Positions 6,818 to 16,885 of a stretch of 17,394 bases of DNA are shown piece by piece. Under the pieces are notes generated by a model. That model saw only the letters and a list, made by a program, of their open reading frames with translations, ran no database searches and was not told the DNA's origin. The position numbers and the translations under genes were made by a program. Each line of letters starts with the position of its first letter. The stretch's first letter is position 1. Source of the stretch: Promethearchaeota archaeon (GTDB lineage: Archaea; Asgardarchaeota; Lokiarchaeia; Sigyniarchaeales; SOKP01); the NCBI GenBank assembly GCA_048941265.1, contig JBHLNT010000081.1:1-17394 (forward strand), written 5' to 3'.

Positions 6818-7504
6818 ATGTCAGATCTTTCCTTTGATATAAAAATTGTCTATGATAATTTATGTCATGAAAAAGACTTCCTTATGGGATTCGGTTTTTC
6901 AGCATTAATATTTAATCACTTTACTCAGAATTATTTACTATTTGATACAGGTGCTAAGAGCGATGTTTTGTTTAATAATCTCGAAATGTTCAATGTAGAT
7001 ATAACAGATATTAAAAAAGTTGTTATTTCTCATTCACATCTAGATCATGCTGGAAGTTTAAGAGAGATTTATAATTTAAATCCTAAAATTGAGATATATG
7101 TTACAAAAGGCGATGAAAATGCATTTAAGAGTGCCTATTTGAATGCTAAAATTTACGGTACCTCGAGTTTAATGGAAATTGAAAAGAATATATATTCTTC
7201 GGGTCATTTTGATTGGTCGCATATAAATGAACATGCTTTATTTCTAAAAACAATTAAGAATGAAATTATTATAATTGTAGGATGCGCCCACCCCGGCTTA
7301 GAACAGTTCATTTTAAGAGCTAAAGAACTGAATGGCCGTATAAAAGCCGTTATAGGGGGATTTCATGGATTCAGGAATTTTTCTTATTTAGAAAACATCG
7401 AACTAATCGCAGCGTGCCACTGTACAAGATATAGAGAGGAAATTTATCGAAAATTCCCAAAACAATTTAAAAACCTCTGTGTTGGGCAAAATTTAACTTT
7501 CTAG
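6818..7504 (+). CDS. Metallo-beta-lactamase-fold hydrolase (COG1237 / MJ0301-like), paralog 1
   Basis: GFGFSALI, LLFDTG, HSHLDHAG (HxHxDH), GCAHPG, IGGFH and CHCT motifs. Confidence 0.92.
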   Translation: MSDLSFDIKIVYDNLCHEKDFLMGFGFSALIFNHFTQNYLLFDTGAKSDVLFNNLEMFNVDITDIKKVVISHSHLDHAGSLREIYNLNPKIEIYVTKGDENAFKSAYLNAKIYGTSSLMEIEKNIYSSGHFDWSHINEHALFLKTIKNEIIIIVGCAHPGLEQFILRAKELNGRIKAVIGGFHGFRNFSYLENIELIAACHCTRYREEIYRKFPKQFKNLCVGQNLTF

Positions 7505-7574: not shown

Positions 7575-8261
7575 ATGGAATCCATTTCAGTCACGTTTGA
7601 AGTTAAAATTGTTTTTGAGGGGACTCAAGGATATGAGGGATTTATAAGTGGACGGGGCTTTTCAGTATTAATCTACAATCATTTCACAGATAATTACTTA
7701 TTATTCGATACGGGTTCGGAAGGAGAAGCTTTAATACATAATATAGGAAAATGTGGAATAGAGCTTTCAGATATTAAAAAAGTAATAATCTCCCATAATC
7801 ATCAAGAACATTCCGGTGGTTTAGAAGAATTATATAATAGAAATCCTAAGATTGAAATTTACGTACCTATTGAGAATTTTATAACATATAATAGAAAATA
7901 TTCAAAATCTAAAGTGATGGGTGTTTTAAAATTTACCGAAATTGATACCAATATTTATTCTACTGGACAACTTGGAAATTATTTAAAAGAACAAGCATTA
8001 TTCTTAAAAACATATGAAGACAAGATAATAATCCTTGTAGGTTGTGCACATCCAGGACTAGACGAAATAATTATGATGGCTAAATCAATAGCACCAATAA
8101 AAGCCATAATCGGAGGCTTTCATAATTCGAGAAATTTAATATCTCTACAGAATATTGAATTCATAGGAGCTTGTCATTGCACTCAGAATTTAGATTTAAT
8201 AAAACAAAGATATCCCGAGCAATTTAATGATATAAACGTAGGAAAAGCTATAGAGTTTTAG
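7575..8261 (+). CDS. Metallo-beta-lactamase-fold hydrolase (COG1237 / MJ0301-like), paralog 2
   Basis: Same length (228 aa) and motifs as paralog 1: LLFDTG, HNHQEHSG, GCAHPG, IGGFH, CHCT. Confidence 0.9.
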   Translation: MESISVTFEVKIVFEGTQGYEGFISGRGFSVLIYNHFTDNYLLFDTGSEGEALIHNIGKCGIELSDIKKVIISHNHQEHSGGLEELYNRNPKIEIYVPIENFITYNRKYSKSKVMGVLKFTEIDTNIYSTGQLGNYLKEQALFLKTYEDKIIILVGCAHPGLDEIIMMAKSIAPIKAIIGGFHNSRNLISLQNIEFIGACHCTQNLDLIKQRYPEQFNDINVGKAIEF

Positions 8262-8961: not shown

Positions 8962-10344
8962 TTATTTTTTTTCGAGATCTATATCATCTATTTCATTCTT
9001 TATTACATTAGCAATCTCTTCATTAGCTAAGCTCCACGCATGTACATCTACCTTTCCAAACTGCATAGTCTTTTCAGTTTTCATCGATTCAATCTCTTCT
9101 TCGATCTCATCTTTTTTATATCCTTTTTTGATTAATTTTTCAATTAACAAATCTAATGTTAGTATGAATCCTTTTTTCTCTAAAAGATGAATAATGTGGT
9201 CTCTTAAATTCGTAGGAACTGTTTTGATTTTTTCTAAAGTTTTTTTTATAGAGATTTTAGGAATTCTAAAGTGCTTGGGGATTTTAAGAGATTCTTTTTT
9301 ACCCCATTCGAAATCTGTGATATTTCTTATTGAACGTTCATAACCACCTATAATAAGATGTTTAAGATTGCTCTCCTTGTCTAGAAATGTACCGATGGCA
9401 TTAATTGATGATGAAAAATTTGCTTTCCATTTCAATTTGTAATTGTTCGAATCCACTTTAGTATTATGAAATACTCTTAAGGACCCATCCGCACAACCTG
9501 CAATAATTTCTTTTGCGTTATCTCCATCAATATCCTCTAATAATAATGATTTAGCTCGATTTAATGTTTTTAGCCCTTTTTTCTTAGATTTAGTTTGCTC
9601 TTTTGTGATCTTGATAAATCTTAAACGTTTACCCTCACTATTATATATTTTAATGTAAGAATCATCGGCGGCAACGATAATTTCGTTATTACCATCATTT
9701 GTAACGTCTCCTATCTTTATATCATTGATTTGAGAATATACATTTTGTTGCCATATGATGTCTGGCTTATTATTTTTAATTTGAATCAATTGGAGCGTTC
9801 CTTTTTTTGTTCCAACTAATAAACCATATAGTGGTATAGAAGAATTTGGAAGTTTTAAATATCCCAAGGTACAACTAGTGACCCAAGAATCATAGTATAA
9901 TGTAAATAACGGTTCTTTAGAGAGCAAACTTTTGAAAACTTTTAAAGTTTTATCTTCTCCACCAAAAAGTAATTCTATATTACCATCTCTATAAAAATCT
10001 CCAGCAACGCAGCATACTACCTTTCCGTCAGATTTATAATTCATTATTCCTACTAATTTTTCCTTTTCTTTATCTAATTTCAAGACCAAAAATCGACCAT
10101 CTCCAGTACCTACTAATAATTCATCGCAGTTATCTCCATCTATGTCAATAGAAAAGGAACAGCGAACCCATCCATCAAAAATAATATCATCGAGAATCAT
10201 TAGATCCTGATTCATCAAATAAAGAGTTTTATCGTGTCCCCCAAAAGTTAAGTATATCTTATTAGAGCATTTTAATATTGAGCAAGTTAAAACAGCCTCA
10301 GGACTTTGAAATACCCAGTGTTGATGATATCTCTTTGTTATCAT
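8962..10344 (-). CDS. FG-GAP/VCBS-type beta-propeller protein with a possible C-terminal winged helix
   Basis: Repeated loops DIDGDNCDELLVG, GDFYRDGNIELLFG, GDVTNDGNNEIIVA and DIDGDNAKEIIAG with WD40-like GxDxxLxVF strands. No signal peptide. The C-terminal roughly 70 aa read as helix-helix-helix-beta-beta. Confidence 0.75.
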   Translation of the reverse strand: MITKRYHQHWVFQSPEAVLTCSILKCSNKIYLTFGGHDKTLYLMNQDLMILDDIIFDGWVRCSFSIDIDGDNCDELLVGTGDGRFLVLKLDKEKEKLVGIMNYKSDGKVVCCVAGDFYRDGNIELLFGGEDKTLKVFKSLLSKEPLFTLYYDSWVTSCTLGYLKLPNSSIPLYGLLVGTKKGTLQLIQIKNNKPDIIWQQNVYSQINDIKIGDVTNDGNNEIIVAADDSYIKIYNSEGKRLRFIKITKEQTKSKKKGLKTLNRAKSLLLEDIDGDNAKEIIAGCADGSLRVFHNTKVDSNNYKLKWKANFSSSINAIGTFLDKESNLKHLIIGGYERSIRNITDFEWGKKESLKIPKHFRIPKISIKKTLEKIKTVPTNLRDHIIHLLEKKGFILTLDLLIEKLIKKGYKKDEIEEEIESMKTEKTMQFGKVDVHAWSLANEEIANVIKNEIDDIDLEKK

Positions 10345-10454
10345 AATTTATAAGTGAAGATTAGAACTTGATAAATCTATTTAATATTTAGAGATTTGTT
10401 ATTTAATTTACTATTTTCTTATAAAATTAGACACAATAAGTCTATTTATTTTTG

Positions 10455-10634
10455 ATGAAATCCATAAAAAAAAGAAAAAGAAATTTAATTTCTGAAATTC
10501 TTTCAACAAATCTGAGTTATAATTTATTTTAAGACAAAGAACTTTCAGAGAATGAAATAAAAGAACTATATGAATTATTAAAAGATAAGATATCTGAAGC
10601 CTCAGACTTAGTTAAAAATATTCATAAACTCTAA
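10455..10634 (+). pseudogene. Degraded ORF remnant, possibly a histidine-kinase dimerisation helix pair
   Basis: MKSIKKRKRNLISEILSTNLSYNLF*DKELSENEIKELYELLKDKISEASDLVKNIHKL* with an internal TAA at 10530-10532. Confidence 0.3.
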
Positions 10635-10718
10635 AACCTACTGTAAGATTTAAAAAAAAGAATTTAACAAAAAAATAGATATAAAAAAATAAAATATTTT
10701 AAGATTAGATTTGTTTGC

Positions 10719-10956
10719 TTAAAGAGCTAATTGTGCGTCTGATGGTTTATATTCTCCTTTACCATGAATCTCATAGGAGATTTCTAATTTCTCCGCTTCT
10801 GTTAATTCTTCAATTTCCCATTTGAGAGTATCTGAACCAACCTCATCAGTGATCTCCGGAGTCATACTATAATCCCCATACTCAAAATTATCTGGAACTT
10901 TATCCAGAAGAGTTAAATTTTTAAGTGGTTGATCGCCGATGTTTTCAAGGATTAAT
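10719..10956 (-). repeat. 238-bp direct repeat, copy 3 (attR-like): silent 3' end of the 729-aa gene encoding ...EELTEA...DAQLAL*
   Basis: Differs from the gene copy at 10 positions (10938, 10875, 10805, 10802, 10776 and 10723-10727). An in-frame TAA immediately precedes it. Confidence 0.95.
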
Positions 10957-11014
10957 TAGTTATATAAAAAATAATTTTACTATGTTTTAATTAAAATTTT
11001 ATTCTACTAATTCA

Positions 11015-11320
11015 TTAACTAGATGTTCCACTTAAATCAAATTTAAGTAGTTCTATGTTTATTGTTTTATTACAATTTTTACATGAAAGATTTACTATAG
11101 GTAAAGCCCCAATTTTTTCATAATATTTCTTTAGAATGTGATATCCTATTTCTCCAGTAATTTTAGATAACATTCCTCCTAAAGGCTTAGAAGTTGCAAG
11201 TGCTTCATAAAATCTCTCGTATGCTTGTATAACACCGTTTTTAAAATCTTTATCAATCTCTACATTTAACAGTGATAGTTTTAAATCAAGCTCAGTTTCA
11301 CAATATGGACATAATGACAT
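11015..11320 (-). CDS. 101-aa protein with a split zinc ribbon (CPYC ... CKNC), copy 1
   Basis: ATG start with a strong GGTGA SD at 11325-11329. Two CxxC motifs flank a helical insert of about 70 aa. Confidence 0.8.
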   Translation of the reverse strand: MSLCPYCETELDLKLSLLNVEIDKDFKNGVIQAYERFYEALATSKPLGGMLSKITGEIGYHILKKYYEKIGALPIVNLSCKNCNKTINIELLKFDLSGTSS

Positions 11321-11377
11321 TAAATCACCCTATTTTGTTTTTATTTATATAATATTAGACTATTTAAACAAAAATAA

Positions 11378-11719
11378 TGTTTAATATTAAATATATTCAT
11401 TGATTTATTTAATGTATTCTTTCAAATTGGTTTGGAATTTCAAGGTTATCAACATTTTATATTTCCTAATATTTATCATTCTAATATTAATGAATTTTTA
11501 TATGATATTTTTACAGACGAAATTAAAGTTGAGATTGCAAAATTAAGTAATATTCATTTAATCATTTTTCCTTATTTTATAGATATTAAAATGAATAATC
11601 CTATTGAAATCCAACAAGCAATTATTGACCAATTGGAAGAATTATTAAATATCAATATTTCTAACTCAATCCCACAATTTAATCATTTAGAAGATTATAA
11701 TTATTATCATTTTGAATAA
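11378..11719 (+). pseudogene. Vsr/DUF559-like PD-(D/E)xK-type nuclease domain, probably 5'-truncated, copy 1
   Basis: The frame is open from 11378: ...FIDLFNVFFQIGLEFQGYQHFIFPNIYH...DEIKVEIAKLSNIHLIIFPY. This matches D-x(n)-E-x-x-G-x-x-H ... D-x-x-K ... I-x-L-I-x-x-P-Y. The track starts at TTG 11432, after the candidate catalytic Asp. Confidence 0.55.
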
Positions 11720-11732
11720 AAATATATTGTTC

Positions 11733-11752
11733 GATTCATATGAGTATGAATC
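11733..11752. repeat. Perfect 8-bp inverted repeat GATTCATA-tgag-TATGAATC, copy 1
   Basis: Read directly from the sequence. It lies between the convergent nuclease-like ORF and the host-gene 3' end. Confidence 0.7.
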
Positions 11753-11799
11753 ATAAAAATAAGATAAAAAAAAATTTTTAATAGATTATTTATTAAAGT

Positions 11800-12037
11800 T
11801 TAATAGCTTAATTGTGCGTCTGATGGTTTATATTCTCCTTTACCATGAATCTCATATGAGATTTCTAATTTCTCCGCTTCTGCTATTTCTTCAATTTCCC
11901 ATTTGAGAGTATCTGAACCAACCTCATCAGTGATCTCCGGAGTCATACTATAATCCCCATACTCAAAATTATCTGGAACTTTATCCAGAAGAGTTAAATT
12001 TTTAAGTGGTTGATCGCCGATGTTTTCAAGGATTAAT
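11800..12037 (-). repeat. 238-bp direct repeat, copy 2 (attP-like mosaic): silent 3' end encoding ...EEIAEA...DAQLSY*
   Basis: Matches copy 3 at 12019 and 11956 but matches the gene at 11886, 11883, 11857 and the last codons. Confidence 0.95.
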
Positions 12038-12095
12038 TAGTTATATAAAAAATAATTTTACTATGTTTTAATTAAAATTTTATTCTACTAATTCA

Positions 12096-12401
12096 TTAAC
12101 TAGATGTTCCACTTAAATCAAATTTAAGTAGTTCTATGTTTATTGTTTTATTACAATTTTTACATGAAAGATTTACTATAGGTAAAGCCCCAATTTTTTC
12201 ATAATATTTCTTTAGAATGTGATATCCTATTTCTCCAGTAATTTTAGATAACATTCCTCCTAAAGGCTTAGAAGTTGCAAGTGCTTCATAAAATCTCTCG
12301 TATGCTTGTATAACACCGTTTTTAAAATCTTTATCAATCTCTACATTTAACAGTGATAGTTTTAAATCAAGCTCAGTTTCACAATATGGACATAATGACA
12401 T
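12096..12401 (-). CDS. 101-aa split zinc-ribbon protein, copy 2
   Basis: Identical translation to 11015-11320. Confidence 0.8.
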   Translation of the reverse strand: MSLCPYCETELDLKLSLLNVEIDKDFKNGVIQAYERFYEALATSKPLGGMLSKITGEIGYHILKKYYEKIGALPIVNLSCKNCNKTINIELLKFDLSGTSS

Positions 12402-12458
12402 TAAATCACCCTATTTTGTTTTTATTTATATAATATTAGACTATTTAAACAAAAATAA

Positions 12459-12800
12459 TGTTTAATATTAAATATATTCATTGATTTATTTAATGTATTC
12501 TTTCAAATTGGTTTGGAATTTCAAGGTTATCAACATTTTATATTTCCTAATATTTATCATTCTAATATTAATGAATTTTTATATGATATTTTTACAGACG
12601 AAATTAAAGTTGAGATTGCAAAATTAAGTAATATTCATTTAATCATTTTTCCTTATTTTATAGATATTAAAATGAATAATCCTATTGAAATCCAACAAGC
12701 AATTATTGACCAATTGGAAGAATTATTAAATATCAATATTTCTAACTCAATCCCACAATTTAATCATTTAGAAGATTATAATTATTATCATTTTGAATAA
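12459..12800 (+). pseudogene. Vsr/DUF559-like nuclease domain, probably truncated, copy 2
   Basis: Identical to 11378-11719 shifted by 1081 bp. Confidence 0.55.
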
Positions 12801-12813
12801 AAATATATTGTTC

Positions 12814-12833
12814 GATTCATATGAGTATGAATC
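12814..12833. repeat. 8-bp inverted repeat, copy 2
   Basis: GATTCATA-tgag-TATGAATC. Confidence 0.7.
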
Positions 12834-12880
12834 ATAAAAATAAGATAAAAAAAAATTTTTAATAGATTATTTATTAAAGT

Positions 12881-13118
12881 TTAATAGCTTAATTGTGCGT
12901 CTGATGGTTTATATTCTCCTTTACCATGAATCTCATATGAGATTTCTAATTTCTCCGCTTCTGCTATTTCTTCAATTTCCCATTTGAGAGTATCTGAACC
13001 AACCTCATCAGTGATCTCCGGAGTCATACTATAATCGCCATACTCAAAATTATCTGGAACTTTATCCAGAAGAGTTAAATTTTTAAGTGGTTGATCGCCT
13101 ATGTTTTCAAGGATTAAT
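12881..13118 (-). repeat. 238-bp direct repeat, copy 1 (attL-like): the in-frame 3' end of the 729-aa gene
   Basis: Identity with the other copies stops after GGATTAAT at 13118. Private alleles at 13100 and 13037. Confidence 0.95.
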
Positions 13119-15070
13119 ATAATCTTGTAATTTCCAAGATCCCCAATAGCAAGAACTTCCTTTCCAACTCTGAATTTTCTTCTGATGTGAATTGCTTCAA
13201 TTGCAGGAACATCAGGTCTTACTTCAATTTCATTGGATAATGGATAAGTATTAGCAAGATAAAGAACTTCAGATTCGAATCTCGAGGCTTGAGCTGGACT
13301 CATGCAGTGAATTGGGTATTGAACTTCTAACTTCGATTCAGGTTCAAACATTCCAGTACTGCTCTCCTTTAAATCTTTAAGCTCTATTCTCAGAGAATTA
13401 CCATCAACACTGACAGCAGAAGAATCAATTTCTATTTCACTTCCATCCCATAATACTTTTATCTCATCAGCATTAGGAGGTTGATATTCATCTGAAAAGA
13501 CTTCTTGTTGGACCACAATTTCATTTAACGGGGCAGAACCATTATTTTCAAGTTTGTGTACCGCAATAACATCGGTTTCCTTGAAAGTTGGAACTTGTAT
13601 AAGCATTTCTTCGATTTCTTTTGCAGTGGGTTCTGCAGTTTCTGAAAGCGTATAAAGAACTTGTCCAGTGATACTTGCTATGGCTAATTCAACATCTGAA
13701 ATTTCCATGGTACCACTTACCTGAGTTACAAAATCAGGCATGACTCGAAATTCAAGTAATTTTCTAAATTGCGGATAATCCTCACTTTCATACTGCCATT
13801 TTACAGAATGCCATTCGGCACCAGCAGGTAGAACTGGAACATCATTAGGATCAATATCTACAAGTTTAGTGCTCTCAGCATCGGGAGCATAAACGTCTGC
13901 ATTAAATAATTGAACTAAAAACTCTGAAGAATTATCGAACACTAATTTGCAATCCCATACATTCGGTTCTTCGTCTCTTTCAACTATATCCACATAAAAT
14001 CTATTAGTGGTATAAGCATCAAATTTATCAATACCTAATCCTTCTGCGAAAGAGGAGGCTGCTTCATATGTGACTTCAATAGTCCCAGTTTTTCGAGCTT
14101 CAATATCACTAACCATAATCTCTGAGGTGAATGTACATAATACCGTGGTTTCCGGATCTAACGCATCGATTGTCCAAATTAATTGATCTCCCTTTAATTC
14201 TGTATTGCCTATTGTATTGTCTGTAACTCGCGTTTTCGAAAACTCAGCGGGAATGTTCTTAATTACTTTAACATTTTTGATAGGTTTTTCAAAAAGACTT
14301 AATAAACCAATGGCAAATGTCACAGTATTTTCTGTATCGATTGAAATACCAAACGATTCTAAACTGTATTCTTCTGCTCCGGCGTCTGTATCTTCATCTT
14401 CGTCTTCTTCTTCCTCCTCTTCTTCCTCTTCTTTTTTTACTTTCTTTTCGGGTAATTTTCCGGCTTTGGCAGTTTTATCCTTTAATTTCATTAAATCCGA
14501 TTCAATATCATTAACATTTAGGATTCTATCTGCATCAGGTAAGGTATTGATGTATTCTCTTACTAAAAGTAGACTCTTAGCTTCACCAGAGATTTGAAAT
14601 TCACGAGAGTCAACATTATCATCGTCTGTAACCCCTAATTCCTGAATACTAATCTCTGCAGATTTTAAATTAGTACTTTTAATATTTTTAAGAGTAATGT
14701 CAACATCCCATAATCTATCTTTTTTACTAGGATTTTCTACATTTAATTTACCAGAAAAGCCTAAGGATTTAATGTTTGCCTCATGATCTTGTTCTACATT
14801 TACTTCTTCTGCGATTCGAACAACTGCTAATAAGCCTTCGCGATTGCCGTCTTTAAGCAAGATTGAGCCCTCAAGCTCGCCCGTATCCTCGTCATAAGTC
14901 TCAATATAAGGGGTGGATGTATCTCTATCGACTAATTCAGCCCTCCCTACATCCATTTGAGTTCTTTTTAAACCTTCTGCTTCTAAAGCCTCCTCTCTGT
15001 CTTCTTCATCCCATCCATAGCCTTTCTTTTTTTCAGGTTTCTTCTTTTTTTCTTCCTTTTTTCGCGCCAT
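12881..15070 (-). CDS. Large acidic cytoplasmic multi-beta-sandwich protein (mu-homology/DUF11-like segments), function unknown
   Basis: 729-aa ORF with a Lys-rich N-terminus, a poly-E/D linker and no signal peptide or TM helix. Ig-like motifs: LENNGSAPLNEIVVQQ, LENIGDQPLKNLTLLDKVP, IKNVKVIKNIP...LIWTIDAL, LKWEIEEI. Confidence 0.85.
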   Translation of the reverse strand: MARKKEEKKKKPEKKKGYGWDEEDREEALEAEGLKRTQMDVGRAELVDRDTSTPYIETYDEDTGELEGSILLKDGNREGLLAVVRIAEEVNVEQDHEANIKSLGFSGKLNVENPSKKDRLWDVDITLKNIKSTNLKSAEISIQELGVTDDDNVDSREFQISGEAKSLLLVREYINTLPDADRILNVNDIESDLMKLKDKTAKAGKLPEKKVKKEEEEEEEEEDEDEDTDAGAEEYSLESFGISIDTENTVTFAIGLLSLFEKPIKNVKVIKNIPAEFSKTRVTDNTIGNTELKGDQLIWTIDALDPETTVLCTFTSEIMVSDIEARKTGTIEVTYEAASSFAEGLGIDKFDAYTTNRFYVDIVERDEEPNVWDCKLVFDNSSEFLVQLFNADVYAPDAESTKLVDIDPNDVPVLPAGAEWHSVKWQYESEDYPQFRKLLEFRVMPDFVTQVSGTMEISDVELAIASITGQVLYTLSETAEPTAKEIEEMLIQVPTFKETDVIAVHKLENNGSAPLNEIVVQQEVFSDEYQPPNADEIKVLWDGSEIEIDSSAVSVDGNSLRIELKDLKESSTGMFEPESKLEVQYPIHCMSPAQASRFESEVLYLANTYPLSNEIEVRPDVPAIEAIHIRRKFRVGKEVLAIGDLGNYKIILILENIGDQPLKNLTLLDKVPDNFEYGDYSMTPEITDEVGSDTLKWEIEEIAEAEKLEISYEIHGKGEYKPSDAQLSY

Positions 15071-15463: not shown

Positions 15464-16885
15464 TTAAGTTTTCTTTGATATTAAAATCAAAATGAGATCG
15501 TTTACATTACATCCAGTTGGACCTGTAATTATCTCACTATTTATGATTTTGAAAAAACTATTTGAATCGTTATTATCTAAATATTCCTTTGTATTTAATT
15601 TTCTCTCTGCTATTTGCTTTAAAATAAAGCTATCTACTAACGCGCCCATTGCTTTGCTATTCCCTTCAATACCATCTAGATTTGCTGCAATAATTAAAAA
15701 ATTATCTTTCAATTCTTTATTGTCTAAGAAATCAAGAAAACTTAAAAGCATCTCTTGATTTCTGCCCCCAGTTCCAGTTCCTTTAATAGTCACAGTTAAT
15801 TCACCAGTACCAATAAGAGCAACATTTTTTTGGAGATTCTCAAATTCATTTTTATTCATTCGTTCAGAAATAATACTATTTAGTTTCTTTCCAAAATCCC
15901 TAGCTTCACCCATAATATTATCAGAAAAATAATTTGTAATAAAATCTTGTTTAAGAGATGTTATAATTTCTTGGACTGCTGTTTTTACGCTCCCTATTAA
16001 ATAATTGTGAATACTTTTAAAACAAGGATGGTTGGTTTTTGGATTTTCTAAACTATTATCGCTAAATCCTTGTTCTAATGAATTTATAATTGATTTTGGA
16101 ACTTTAAAATAAATTCCATATTTCTTTATTATATCTATTGCATCTTTAAATGTTGTTTGATCCGGAACAGTTGGTCCTGAGGCAATTGTATCTAAATTAT
16201 CACCAATTACATCTGAAATTATTAATGAGATTAAAGTAGCGTTGCTGGAGTTAAAAAGGATTTTTGCAAGGTTGCCTCCTTTAAAGTCCGATAAATGCTT
16301 TCTAACGGCATTAATTTCATGAATAGACGCACCTGATGCTAAAAGCAATGAGTTTACATCCTGCAAATCCATTAAAGATATTCCCTCTTTAGGTAAGGGT
16401 AATAACGCTGAACCGCCTCCGGAAATTAAACAGATAATTAAATCTTCTTTCGAAGAATTCTTAATATAATTCAACATTTTTTTGGTTCCGTATACACCAT
16501 TTTCATTAGGGATGGGGTGGGTTGCATAGTTCAACTCGATTTTATGTGTTTTCTCAGAATCTTTTATATTTAATCCTTCGGGAATGTTTATTATTCCTTC
16601 AATATCAATAGGGCCATTAATCATCAGTGTTTCCAAAGCATAAGCCATTTCTGCTGATGCTTTACCTCCCCCAATAATAATTATTTTATGAAATCTGTTT
16701 AGGTTAAAAATCTCATCATAAATGATTAATTTAGCATCCCGGACTTTAACGGAGTTTGCTATTAAATTTTTTGGTTTAACCGCATTTAGAGCTTTTTCCA
16801 AACAATTTAATCCTATTTCTCTTAAATATCTCTGCGACTTATCTAAATTTCCAGAAAGTAATTGAGAAGTATTTTTAATAAACAT
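15464..16885 (-). CDS. gck: Glycerate 2-kinase (DUF4147 + MOFRL family)
   Basis: GGGKAS, ATHPIP, LISGGGSAL, VRKHLSDFKGG, SDVIGDNLDTIASGPT, GELTV, GGRNQE and TGPTGCNVND motifs. Confidence 0.93.
   Translation of the reverse strand: MFIKNTSQLLSGNLDKSQRYLREIGLNCLEKALNAVKPKNLIANSVKVRDAKLIIYDEIFNLNRFHKIIIIGGGKASAEMAYALETLMINGPIDIEGIINIPEGLNIKDSEKTHKIELNYATHPIPNENGVYGTKKMLNYIKNSSKEDLIICLISGGGSALLPLPKEGISLMDLQDVNSLLLASGASIHEINAVRKHLSDFKGGNLAKILFNSSNATLISLIISDVIGDNLDTIASGPTVPDQTTFKDAIDIIKKYGIYFKVPKSIINSLEQGFSDNSLENPKTNHPCFKSIHNYLIGSVKTAVQEIITSLKQDFITNYFSDNIMGEARDFGKKLNSIISERMNKNEFENLQKNVALIGTGELTVTIKGTGTGGRNQEMLLSFLDFLDNKELKDNFLIIAANLDGIEGNSKAMGALVDSFILKQIAERKLNTKEYLDNNDSNSFFKIINSEIITGPTGCNVNDLILILISKKT

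Follow-up and report, generated by a model that had tools for sequence, protein, structure and literature searches.

The locus described here lies on a contig of a Promethearchaeota archaeon (JBHLNT010000081.1), the whole of which, 17,394 bp, was analyzed and is called the window below; it belongs to a metagenome bin of 5.0 Mb in 361 contigs, with 30.5% G+C and 91% completeness. In this window, the 3' end of a conserved gene for a 729-residue protein is followed by two tandem 1081-bp units, each composed of an 843-bp insert and a further copy of the gene's end, and each insert carries the remnant of a nuclease gene next to an intact gene for a small zinc-ribbon protein, here named zn101. In our view, it is somewhat more probable than not that a free-standing insertion of the homing-endonuclease type once entered the 3' end of this conserved archaeal gene and has since decayed.

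The repeated gene end is a 238-bp segment that occurs three times on the minus strand (Table 1), each start lying exactly 1081 bp from the next. Between the copies are two 843-bp inserts (12038–12880, unit A, and 10957–11799, unit B), which show no difference, and the exact repeat extends over 1150 bp at an offset of 1081, which is far beyond chance. Copy 2 departs from copy 1 only at 13100 and 13037, and from copy 3 only at the equivalents of 12967, 12964 and 12938 and at five bases within the last two codons. With the upstream markers denoted G or Y and the downstream markers X or Z, the three copies read G+X, Y+X and Y+Z, and the switch from one set of markers to the other falls inside an identical core of 69 bp (12968–13036). 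Overall, the three ends are 96–99% identical, copy 1 and copy 3 differing at 10 of the 238 positions (96% alike). A sequence-only reading of the window had described this layout of three copies, two cargo stretches and a 1081-bp unit, as well as the mosaic and its core, and sequence comparison bore it out down to the individual markers.

Homologs of the 729-residue gene were found in 38 of 41 related genomes, and in the fetched loci the gene order is conserved, with a DUF4147/MOFRL gene 5' of the ortholog in 11 of them and a β-propeller gene 3' of it in 11. The insertion is absent at 11 syntenic loci of relatives, and neither zn101 nor the nuclease family occurs within 1.5 kb of the 729-residue gene in any fetched relative locus. 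Between the stop codon of the gene and the β-propeller gene, ten relatives have 131–314 bp and an eleventh has 683 bp; the window has 2536 bp if the live stop codon is taken as the starting point and 374 bp if copy 3 is. Because the spacing to the β-propeller gene fits copy 3 and not the live end, copy 3 can be placed at the ancestral position, and the data support an insertion in the 3' end of the gene that brought a replacement end with it, as the sequence-only reading had proposed. That reading had also predicted a Z-type end in relatives free of the cargo, and the closest ortholog (genome G008, same genus, 82% amino acid identity) indeed ends ...EEL..AQLAL*, as does copy 3, rather than ...EEI..AQLSY*, as does copy 1 (asterisk, stop codon). 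A 16-mer common to the sequences 3' of copy 3 and 3' of the G008 ortholog is AT-rich and could be due to chance. Of ten informative sites, the outgroup sides with copy 3 at five, with copy 1 at three and with neither at two, which is too weak a signal to tell which copy came in.

The insert holds, convergent with the host gene, the remnant of a nuclease gene. The open part of this remnant, an open reading frame (ORF) of 95 residues, matches the C-terminal parts of frames of 378, 219, 506 and 485 residues in related genomes (E-values of 3e-13, 1e-12, 1e-11 and 1e-9) and, judged by these alignments, is the C-terminal end of a much larger gene and not a small gene of its own. These relatives came from genome searches, a word-index search of the 95-residue ORF against longer proteins having given no match. 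In the reverse direction, a search with the full-length, 366-residue protein of genome G019 recovered positions 12504–12779 of the window with an E-value of 2.8e-11. A profile of the family runs through the in-frame TAA at 12456–12458 back to 12432, covering model positions 35–160 of 166 (or 38–157), and by alignment the remnant lacks any zinc finger as well as the first ~35 positions of the nuclease domain. An imperfect, AT-rich palindrome (12447–12486 and 11366–11405) is found where the remnant breaks off, ~45 bp 5' of the start codon of zn101. Elsewhere in this genome, the same family has two long, open members, at C305:138–2309 (a frame of 723 residues) and C88:801–2822 (673 residues), which are only distantly similar to the remnant (E-values of 0.07 and 0.015, respectively, with the 95-residue ORF).

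Table 1. Features of the gene-end insertion and of its neighborhood in the window
Feature	Position	Strand	Description
DUF4147/MOFRL gene	15464..16885	-	Pfam assignment; upstream synteny anchor
Host gene, 729 residues	12881..15070	-	Lys/Glu-rich N-terminus, DUF11-type repeats; Pfam DUF11, E-value 1e-6
Copy 1 (G+X), gene end	12881..13118	-	In frame with the 729-residue gene, last 79 codons; ends ...AQLSY*
Spacer, 80 bp, unit A	12801..12880		Between the host gene stop and the stop of the convergent nuclease remnant; same sequence in unit B at 11720-11799
Nuclease remnant, unit A	12432..12800	+	C-terminal ~120 residues of the nuclease domain; open part is the 95-residue ORF, 12513-12800
zn101, unit A	12096..12401	-	Intact protein of 101 residues with two CxxC pairs
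Copy 2 (mosaic Y+X)	11800..12037	-	Gene end without an attached gene body
Insert, unit B	10957..11799		Identical to unit A; nuclease remnant 11351-11719 (+), zn101 11015-11320 (-)
Copy 3 (Y+Z)	10719..10956	-	Displaced gene end at the ancestral position; ends ...AQLAL*
Spacer, 374 bp	10345..10718		From copy 3 to the β-propeller gene; corresponds to the native intergenic region
β-propeller gene, 460 residues	8962..10344	-	Pfam assignment; downstream synteny anchor

Of 41 related genomes, 17 contain the nuclease family to which the remnant belongs, the number of copies per genome being zero to six, and among the matches listed 6 of 38 contain stop codons, two of the six being the window's own copies. 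In G019, a nuclease gene lies between moxR and a gene for a vWA protein, an arrangement seen in 1 of 16 orthologous loci, while moxR ends 10–18 bp before the vWA gene in the four loci in which it is in view. Of 14 loci of a radA paralog, only that of G021 has a nuclease gene, which is situated in the 3' part of the paralog. The two flanks of 26 nuclease loci were compared with each other and with shuffled flanks, and at four of them the end of the host gene was found to be duplicated (z of 13, 19.5, 70 and 8). At the G019 locus (contig C47, 4470–5981, locus L052), the first 22 codons of the vWA gene (85 bp of its 5' end) stand on both sides of the nuclease gene, the two copies being ~75% identical in nucleotides and encoding the same residue at 21 of 22 positions; one serine is encoded by AGT in one copy and by TCA in the other, codons of different families, which suggests that the two copies may come from diverged lineages. 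Around a nuclease gene in G001, 74 bp of the 5' end of a ribD-like gene, its first ~25 codons, are duplicated, and G006 has a short flanking repeat of 31–53 bp. At the G021 locus (contig C120, 1391–4529, locus L083), a full-length nuclease gene comes after the radA paralog and precedes a second, more diverged copy of the paralog's 3' ~400 bp (68% nucleotide identity); this paralog, a single frame of ~410–424 residues in 12 of the 13 other loci fetched, is split in G021 into ORFs of 283 and 138 residues. The G021 locus thus has the layout of the window with the nuclease gene still intact. Since their distribution is patchy, since they are present or absent at orthologous sites and since gene ends are duplicated at their flanks, we read the family as mobile, and its full-length members behave like free-standing homing endonuclease genes.

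Full-length members of the family contain repeated treble-clef zinc fingers of the DUF4379 type (E-value of 5e-20), and their matches in the PHROG database are annotated as HNH endonuclease (7e-29), endonuclease (7e-21) and homing endonuclease (2e-4). The C-terminal 170 residues of the full-length G019 relative were modeled with a predicted local distance difference test score (pLDDT) of 82, and the model points to a Vsr-like nuclease fold. In a wide structural search, the best match was FASTKD4 RAP (Z 9.8, root-mean-square deviation (rmsd) 3.3, 113 aligned), and the model also matched the Vsr endonuclease (1cw0; 121 aligned, Z 9.5, rmsd 3.3) and, over 98 of 98 residues, the catalytic domain of I-Bth0305I (3r3p; Z 9.2, rmsd 3.0, 13% sequence identity); these matches carry the caveat that VIA Z scores of 9–10 lie not far above the 7–8 typical of unrelated models. 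In the family alignment, D57, E74, G77, Q79, H80, D101 and K104 are invariant. I-Bth0305I, whose gene resides within a group I intron in recA of a phage, serves as the prototype for Vsr-like EDxHD homing endonucleases (PMC3239194); the genes considered here resemble it in the modeled C-terminal domain, which aligns to its catalytic domain and to Vsr, and differ from it in being free-standing, in residing in archaeal chromosomes and in having an N-terminal array of DUF4379 zinc fingers. A sequence search of the PDB with the full-length nuclease returned nothing below an E-value of 0.09, and all named database relatives of the family are "hypothetical proteins" labeled as Promethearchaeota (Asgard lineage). 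Within the limited literature collection that was searched, we found no account of a zinc-finger/Vsr-like nuclease family in archaea; other candidates, HNH-like and located in viruses, are mentioned in a study of the mobile elements of Asgard archaea (PMC11529989).

On the basis of these data, the following course of events can be proposed. A DNA segment from a relative would have entered the last DUF11-type domain of the gene by break repair or homologous recombination; that relative would have been a very close one, because the two gene ends are 96% alike, and, because the cargo holds a homing-endonuclease-like remnant, we infer homing, that is, double-strand-break repair, as the way in. The incoming segment would have borne a replacement for the last 79 codons together with a convergent gene for a zinc-finger/Vsr-like nuclease, with zn101 acquired either at entry or afterwards. 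The incoming end would have been kept in frame as copy 1, and the native end, pushed downstream, would now be the orphan copy 3. Subsequently, the 5' two-thirds of the nuclease gene would have been lost and a stop codon would have arisen in the rest and, because the gene is truncated and interrupted in this way, the unit can presumably no longer drive its own spread. The 238-bp direct repeats would serve as ordinary substrates of homologous recombination, such that an unequal crossover between copy 3 and copy 1 of two chromosomes, within the 69-bp core, would generate a second unit with a Y+X middle copy; the reciprocal products of a crossover in the core would be an empty site and a 1081-bp circle. 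Alternatively, the second unit may stem from an assembler that walked a loop of the graph twice, which would produce the same sequence. Unequal crossover in the core had been offered by the sequence-only reading as its alternative, and it explains copy 2 at least as well as the integrations favored there, as does the assembly loop.

Several observations, besides the modest fold scores given above, weigh against this interpretation. That members of the family cleave DNA, or home at all, is something we infer. The nuclease gene of the window is a truncated wreck, and an intact copy at this site occurs in none of the data sets examined. The family profile includes the window's own row, so that its E-values are inflated; the searches with the 95-residue ORF and with the G019 protein are independent of it. 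In a Foldseek search with the C-terminal model, nothing was found at an E-value of 0.001 or below, the rows returned being weak ones, of which several of the better are PD-(D/E)xK nucleases. Duplicated flanks were seen at only 4 of the 26 family loci, with one further locus at a marginal z of 3.8 and 21 at z below 2.1, and the repeats of the window are 96% alike as compared with 68–80% around the full-length members. Finally, zn101 occupies the place of the missing 5' part of the nuclease gene, and its arrival is left unexplained.

A further difficulty concerns the second unit. Public data were available as Logan contigs (k=31), which break at the borders of repeats and cannot phase markers 69 bp apart; the comparison was made over the repeat-free stretch 9800–11799. 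The junctions of X-type end and insert, insert and Y-type markers, Z-type end and flank, and gene and repeat are present in the contigs of four runs from two studies; because these contigs carry the junctions independently, the insertion is not a chimera of a single assembly. In run X2, the insert contig (605 letters, no differences) has a depth of 7.08 and the exact-match flank one of 6.7, against 13 for the gene and far-flank contigs, and in run X1 the corresponding figures are 6.7 for the insert contig and 11.3 for the gene contig; each contig has a single depth value, which is not to be taken as a copy number, and the assembly may derive from other runs, both points that likewise count against us. 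In these runs, contig depth fits at most one insert per genome and speaks against two units, lending them no support. As an exact repeat of 1150 bp exceeds short reads and the usual insert sizes, the second unit is possibly an assembly loop, and that most cells carry two units seems to us conceivable and rather doubtful. The public runs show at least two strains. Contigs with mixed markers were found in run X4 (cargo, X-type end, Z markers and the G marker) and in run X3 (gene-linked, with a Y marker and Z markers), which may be graph chimeras and from which nothing was concluded; a joint in X1 that skips 1097 letters has just 23 letters on one side and was set aside. No empty-site contig was demonstrated.

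Among other explanations, the locus might be a non-mobile patchwork, in which a local rearrangement, or DNA that came from a sister strain, duplicated the gene end and put two unrelated pieces of genes beside it, the nuclease remnant being there by accident. Orphan fragments of the same gene's end do occur in relatives without an adjoining nuclease gene (G006 C25, G013 C51 and G001 C6), pseudogenes of the nuclease family are common, and there are at least two breakpoints in the insert for which no single mechanism can account. Nevertheless, 80 bp separate the remnant from the replaced gene end, and the same arrangement of gene end, nuclease gene and second gene end surrounds four full-length members of the family, including the case with ~400 bp of 3' end, and we regard such a patchwork as unlikely.

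The sequence-only reading itself had favored a non-autonomous circle of 1081 bp, consisting of an attachment site attP (Y+X) and the cargo, that integrated twice, or once and then again, into a chromosomal site attB (G+Z) by means of a recombinase supplied in trans or by RadA-type recombination. Single-crossover integration does yield the mosaic G+X, Y+X, Y+Z, and the Z-type end of the closest relative agrees with it; the markers, however, equally allow copy 1 to have come in whole and copy 3 to be native throughout, and do not tell the two schemes apart, the outgroup splitting five to three to two over the informative sites. As for the enzymes, the genome encodes RadA (two matches over a cut-off that only the four archaeal control genomes reach) and three tyrosine recombinases (PF00589), which are located on other contigs, C132 and C31. 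The RadA matches are also the basis for regarding the bin as archaeal; no archaeal SSU rRNA was found in it. No serine recombinase (PF00239) was found in this 91%-complete genome, and no recombinase is present in or beside the unit, the ORFs of the insert having no Pfam family; the earlier description of the unit as integrase-less was correct in this respect. The cargo has no replication or integration function and holds a nuclease pseudogene instead, and 238 bp at 96% identity do not make an att site. Throughout the genome, the unit matches only this locus, with no second site and no other cargo flanked by the same 238 bp, the remaining matches being a paralog end, 69% identical to the gene-end stretch, and 43 bp at 84% identity on C341. 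Unequal crossover or an assembly loop would give the identical sequence, and contig depth leaves room for at most one unit. A circle, site-specific recombination of the att type and two successive integrations are all unsupported, and we think this account quite improbable.

It is just as doubtful, in our opinion, that the unit with its dead nuclease is still mobile, looping out as a 1081-bp circle and re-entering sister chromosomes by RadA-dependent recombination, or driven in trans by the intact paralogs on C305 and C88; this would entail arrays with variable numbers of units in a probably polyploid archaeon, the unit being a minimal hitch-hiker without an integrase that descends from a decayed homing endonuclease gene, and, behind it, an undescribed family of free-standing zinc-finger/Vsr-like homing endonucleases that swaps chromosomal gene ends in Promethearchaeota-like archaea. 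That the entire structure is an assembly chimera of mixed strains, with an insertion present in no cell, could be argued from the nature of the genome as a 361-contig metagenome bin and from the strain mixture in the public runs, and is highly improbable given that four runs from two studies independently hold the junctions. Two other identities were considered and rejected. A polymorphic toxin locus with orphan C-terminal cassettes (Rhs/CdiA) would be expected to display a variable domain, which is missing here, the ends being near-identical and without a match to any toxin or defense family; an intron-borne homing endonuclease finds no Rfam match at an E-value of 1 or below in 10300–13300. 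No tRNA and no defense family was found at the locus.

The preferred interpretation, a decayed homing-endonuclease-type insertion, can be compared with several known systems. Integrative elements, such as islands with a tyrosine recombinase that reside in genes for tRNAs or proteins, bring along a substitute for the 3' end of the gene they target. The window is similar to them in that the insertion is in the 3' end of a gene, the end is duplicated and the gene remains intact; it differs in having no recombinase, in having long, near-identical repeats instead of a short att core, and in a cargo of 843 bp devoid of element functions. The mobile reading frames known as mORFs in fungal mitochondria, of which atp6 of Allomyces macrogynus is said to provide a further case, present the same succession of gene body, incoming in-frame 3' end, endonuclease gene and displaced native end, along with presence or absence among relatives. 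In the Glomus study (PMC3630166), these insertions are described as carrying a foreign in-frame copy of the C-terminus, with the native C-terminus, which resembles that of close relatives, left downstream, and hybrid genes are reported for atp6, atp9, cox2 and nad3, the two ends being 64–81% alike as opposed to 96% here. Unlike mORFs, the insertion in the window has an archaeal chromosome for its host and not an organelle, its nuclease is of the zinc-finger and Vsr-like type instead of LAGLIDADG or GIY-YIG, the gene for this nuclease is truncated, interrupted by a stop and convergent with the target, an additional zinc-ribbon gene is present, and the unit appears twice. Free-standing homing endonuclease genes of phages, situated at the boundaries of genetic exchange (PMC10055350), offer another parallel, with a nuclease gene beside a conserved gene at a switch in the marker mosaic; those systems involve phage genomes and other nuclease families, and the abstract of that paper mentions no duplication of gene ends. 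Free-standing homing endonuclease genes that bring a replacement gene end are a known kind of element; what would be new here is the archaeal chromosomal host, the free-standing combination of a zinc-finger array with a Vsr-like domain, and the decayed and possibly amplified state.

The second gene of the insert, zn101, has four cysteines (C4, C7, C80 and C83) that are invariant in the alignment of its homologs. No family was found for it in Pfam, NCBIfam or PADLOC, matches in PHROGs were at E-values of 0.065 or weaker, and its structure model (pLDDT 68.5) was too weak for a fold search. Homologs with 28–47% identity are present in 5 of 40 relatives, with none in nine genomes of the same genus, and in two genomes of one genus they share a chromosomal neighborhood. 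A word-index protein search produced a single relative (61% identity, on a contig of 965 bp) and a metagenome scan a single weak, partial locus. Directly 3' of the homolog in G012 (contig C145, 1055–1363, locus L027) is an ORF of 102 residues that has no counterpart at the syntenic locus of its sister genome, G024 (L028), and that we take to resemble the N-terminal part of an IS607-type serine recombinase, with a MerR-like helix-turn-helix followed by the motif ..YGRVSS... In G037 (contig C1, loci L031 and L033; L031 at 1486–2199), an ORF of 237 residues consists of two tandem zn101-like halves, each 28–29% identical to zn101.

Some features of the neighborhood deserve mention. The 729-residue protein itself has a weak Pfam match, below cut-off, to the adaptor mu-homology family. 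The β-propeller protein encoded next to it matches families of eukaryotic type (BBS7 propeller with an E-value of 1e-24, BBS2 middle region and FG-GAP), and this pair of genes is syntenic across a family of genomes. In G006, which is of the same genus, the 729-residue gene is gone from the corresponding place (contig C25, 4159–4296, locus L045), where a relic of its C-terminus, 46 residues with 72% identity, persists just upstream of the β-propeller gene and is preceded by an unrelated gene of more than 1269 residues; a further gene end is located at the very start of contig C192. Elsewhere in the window, two adjacent paralogs of the metallo-β-lactamase fold, each of 228 residues, are arranged in tandem on the plus strand (6818–7504 and 7575–8261).

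If the locus is what we take it to be, the swapping of gene ends by free-standing homing endonuclease genes, which to our knowledge has so far been seen mainly in fungal mitochondria and phages, would operate in archaeal chromosomes too. Such elements would carry short stretches of conserved genes between strains, create orphan gene ends and leave behind long direct repeats that seed both tandem amplification and assembly errors. A mosaic with the appearance of attL, attP and attR requires neither an integrase nor a circle.

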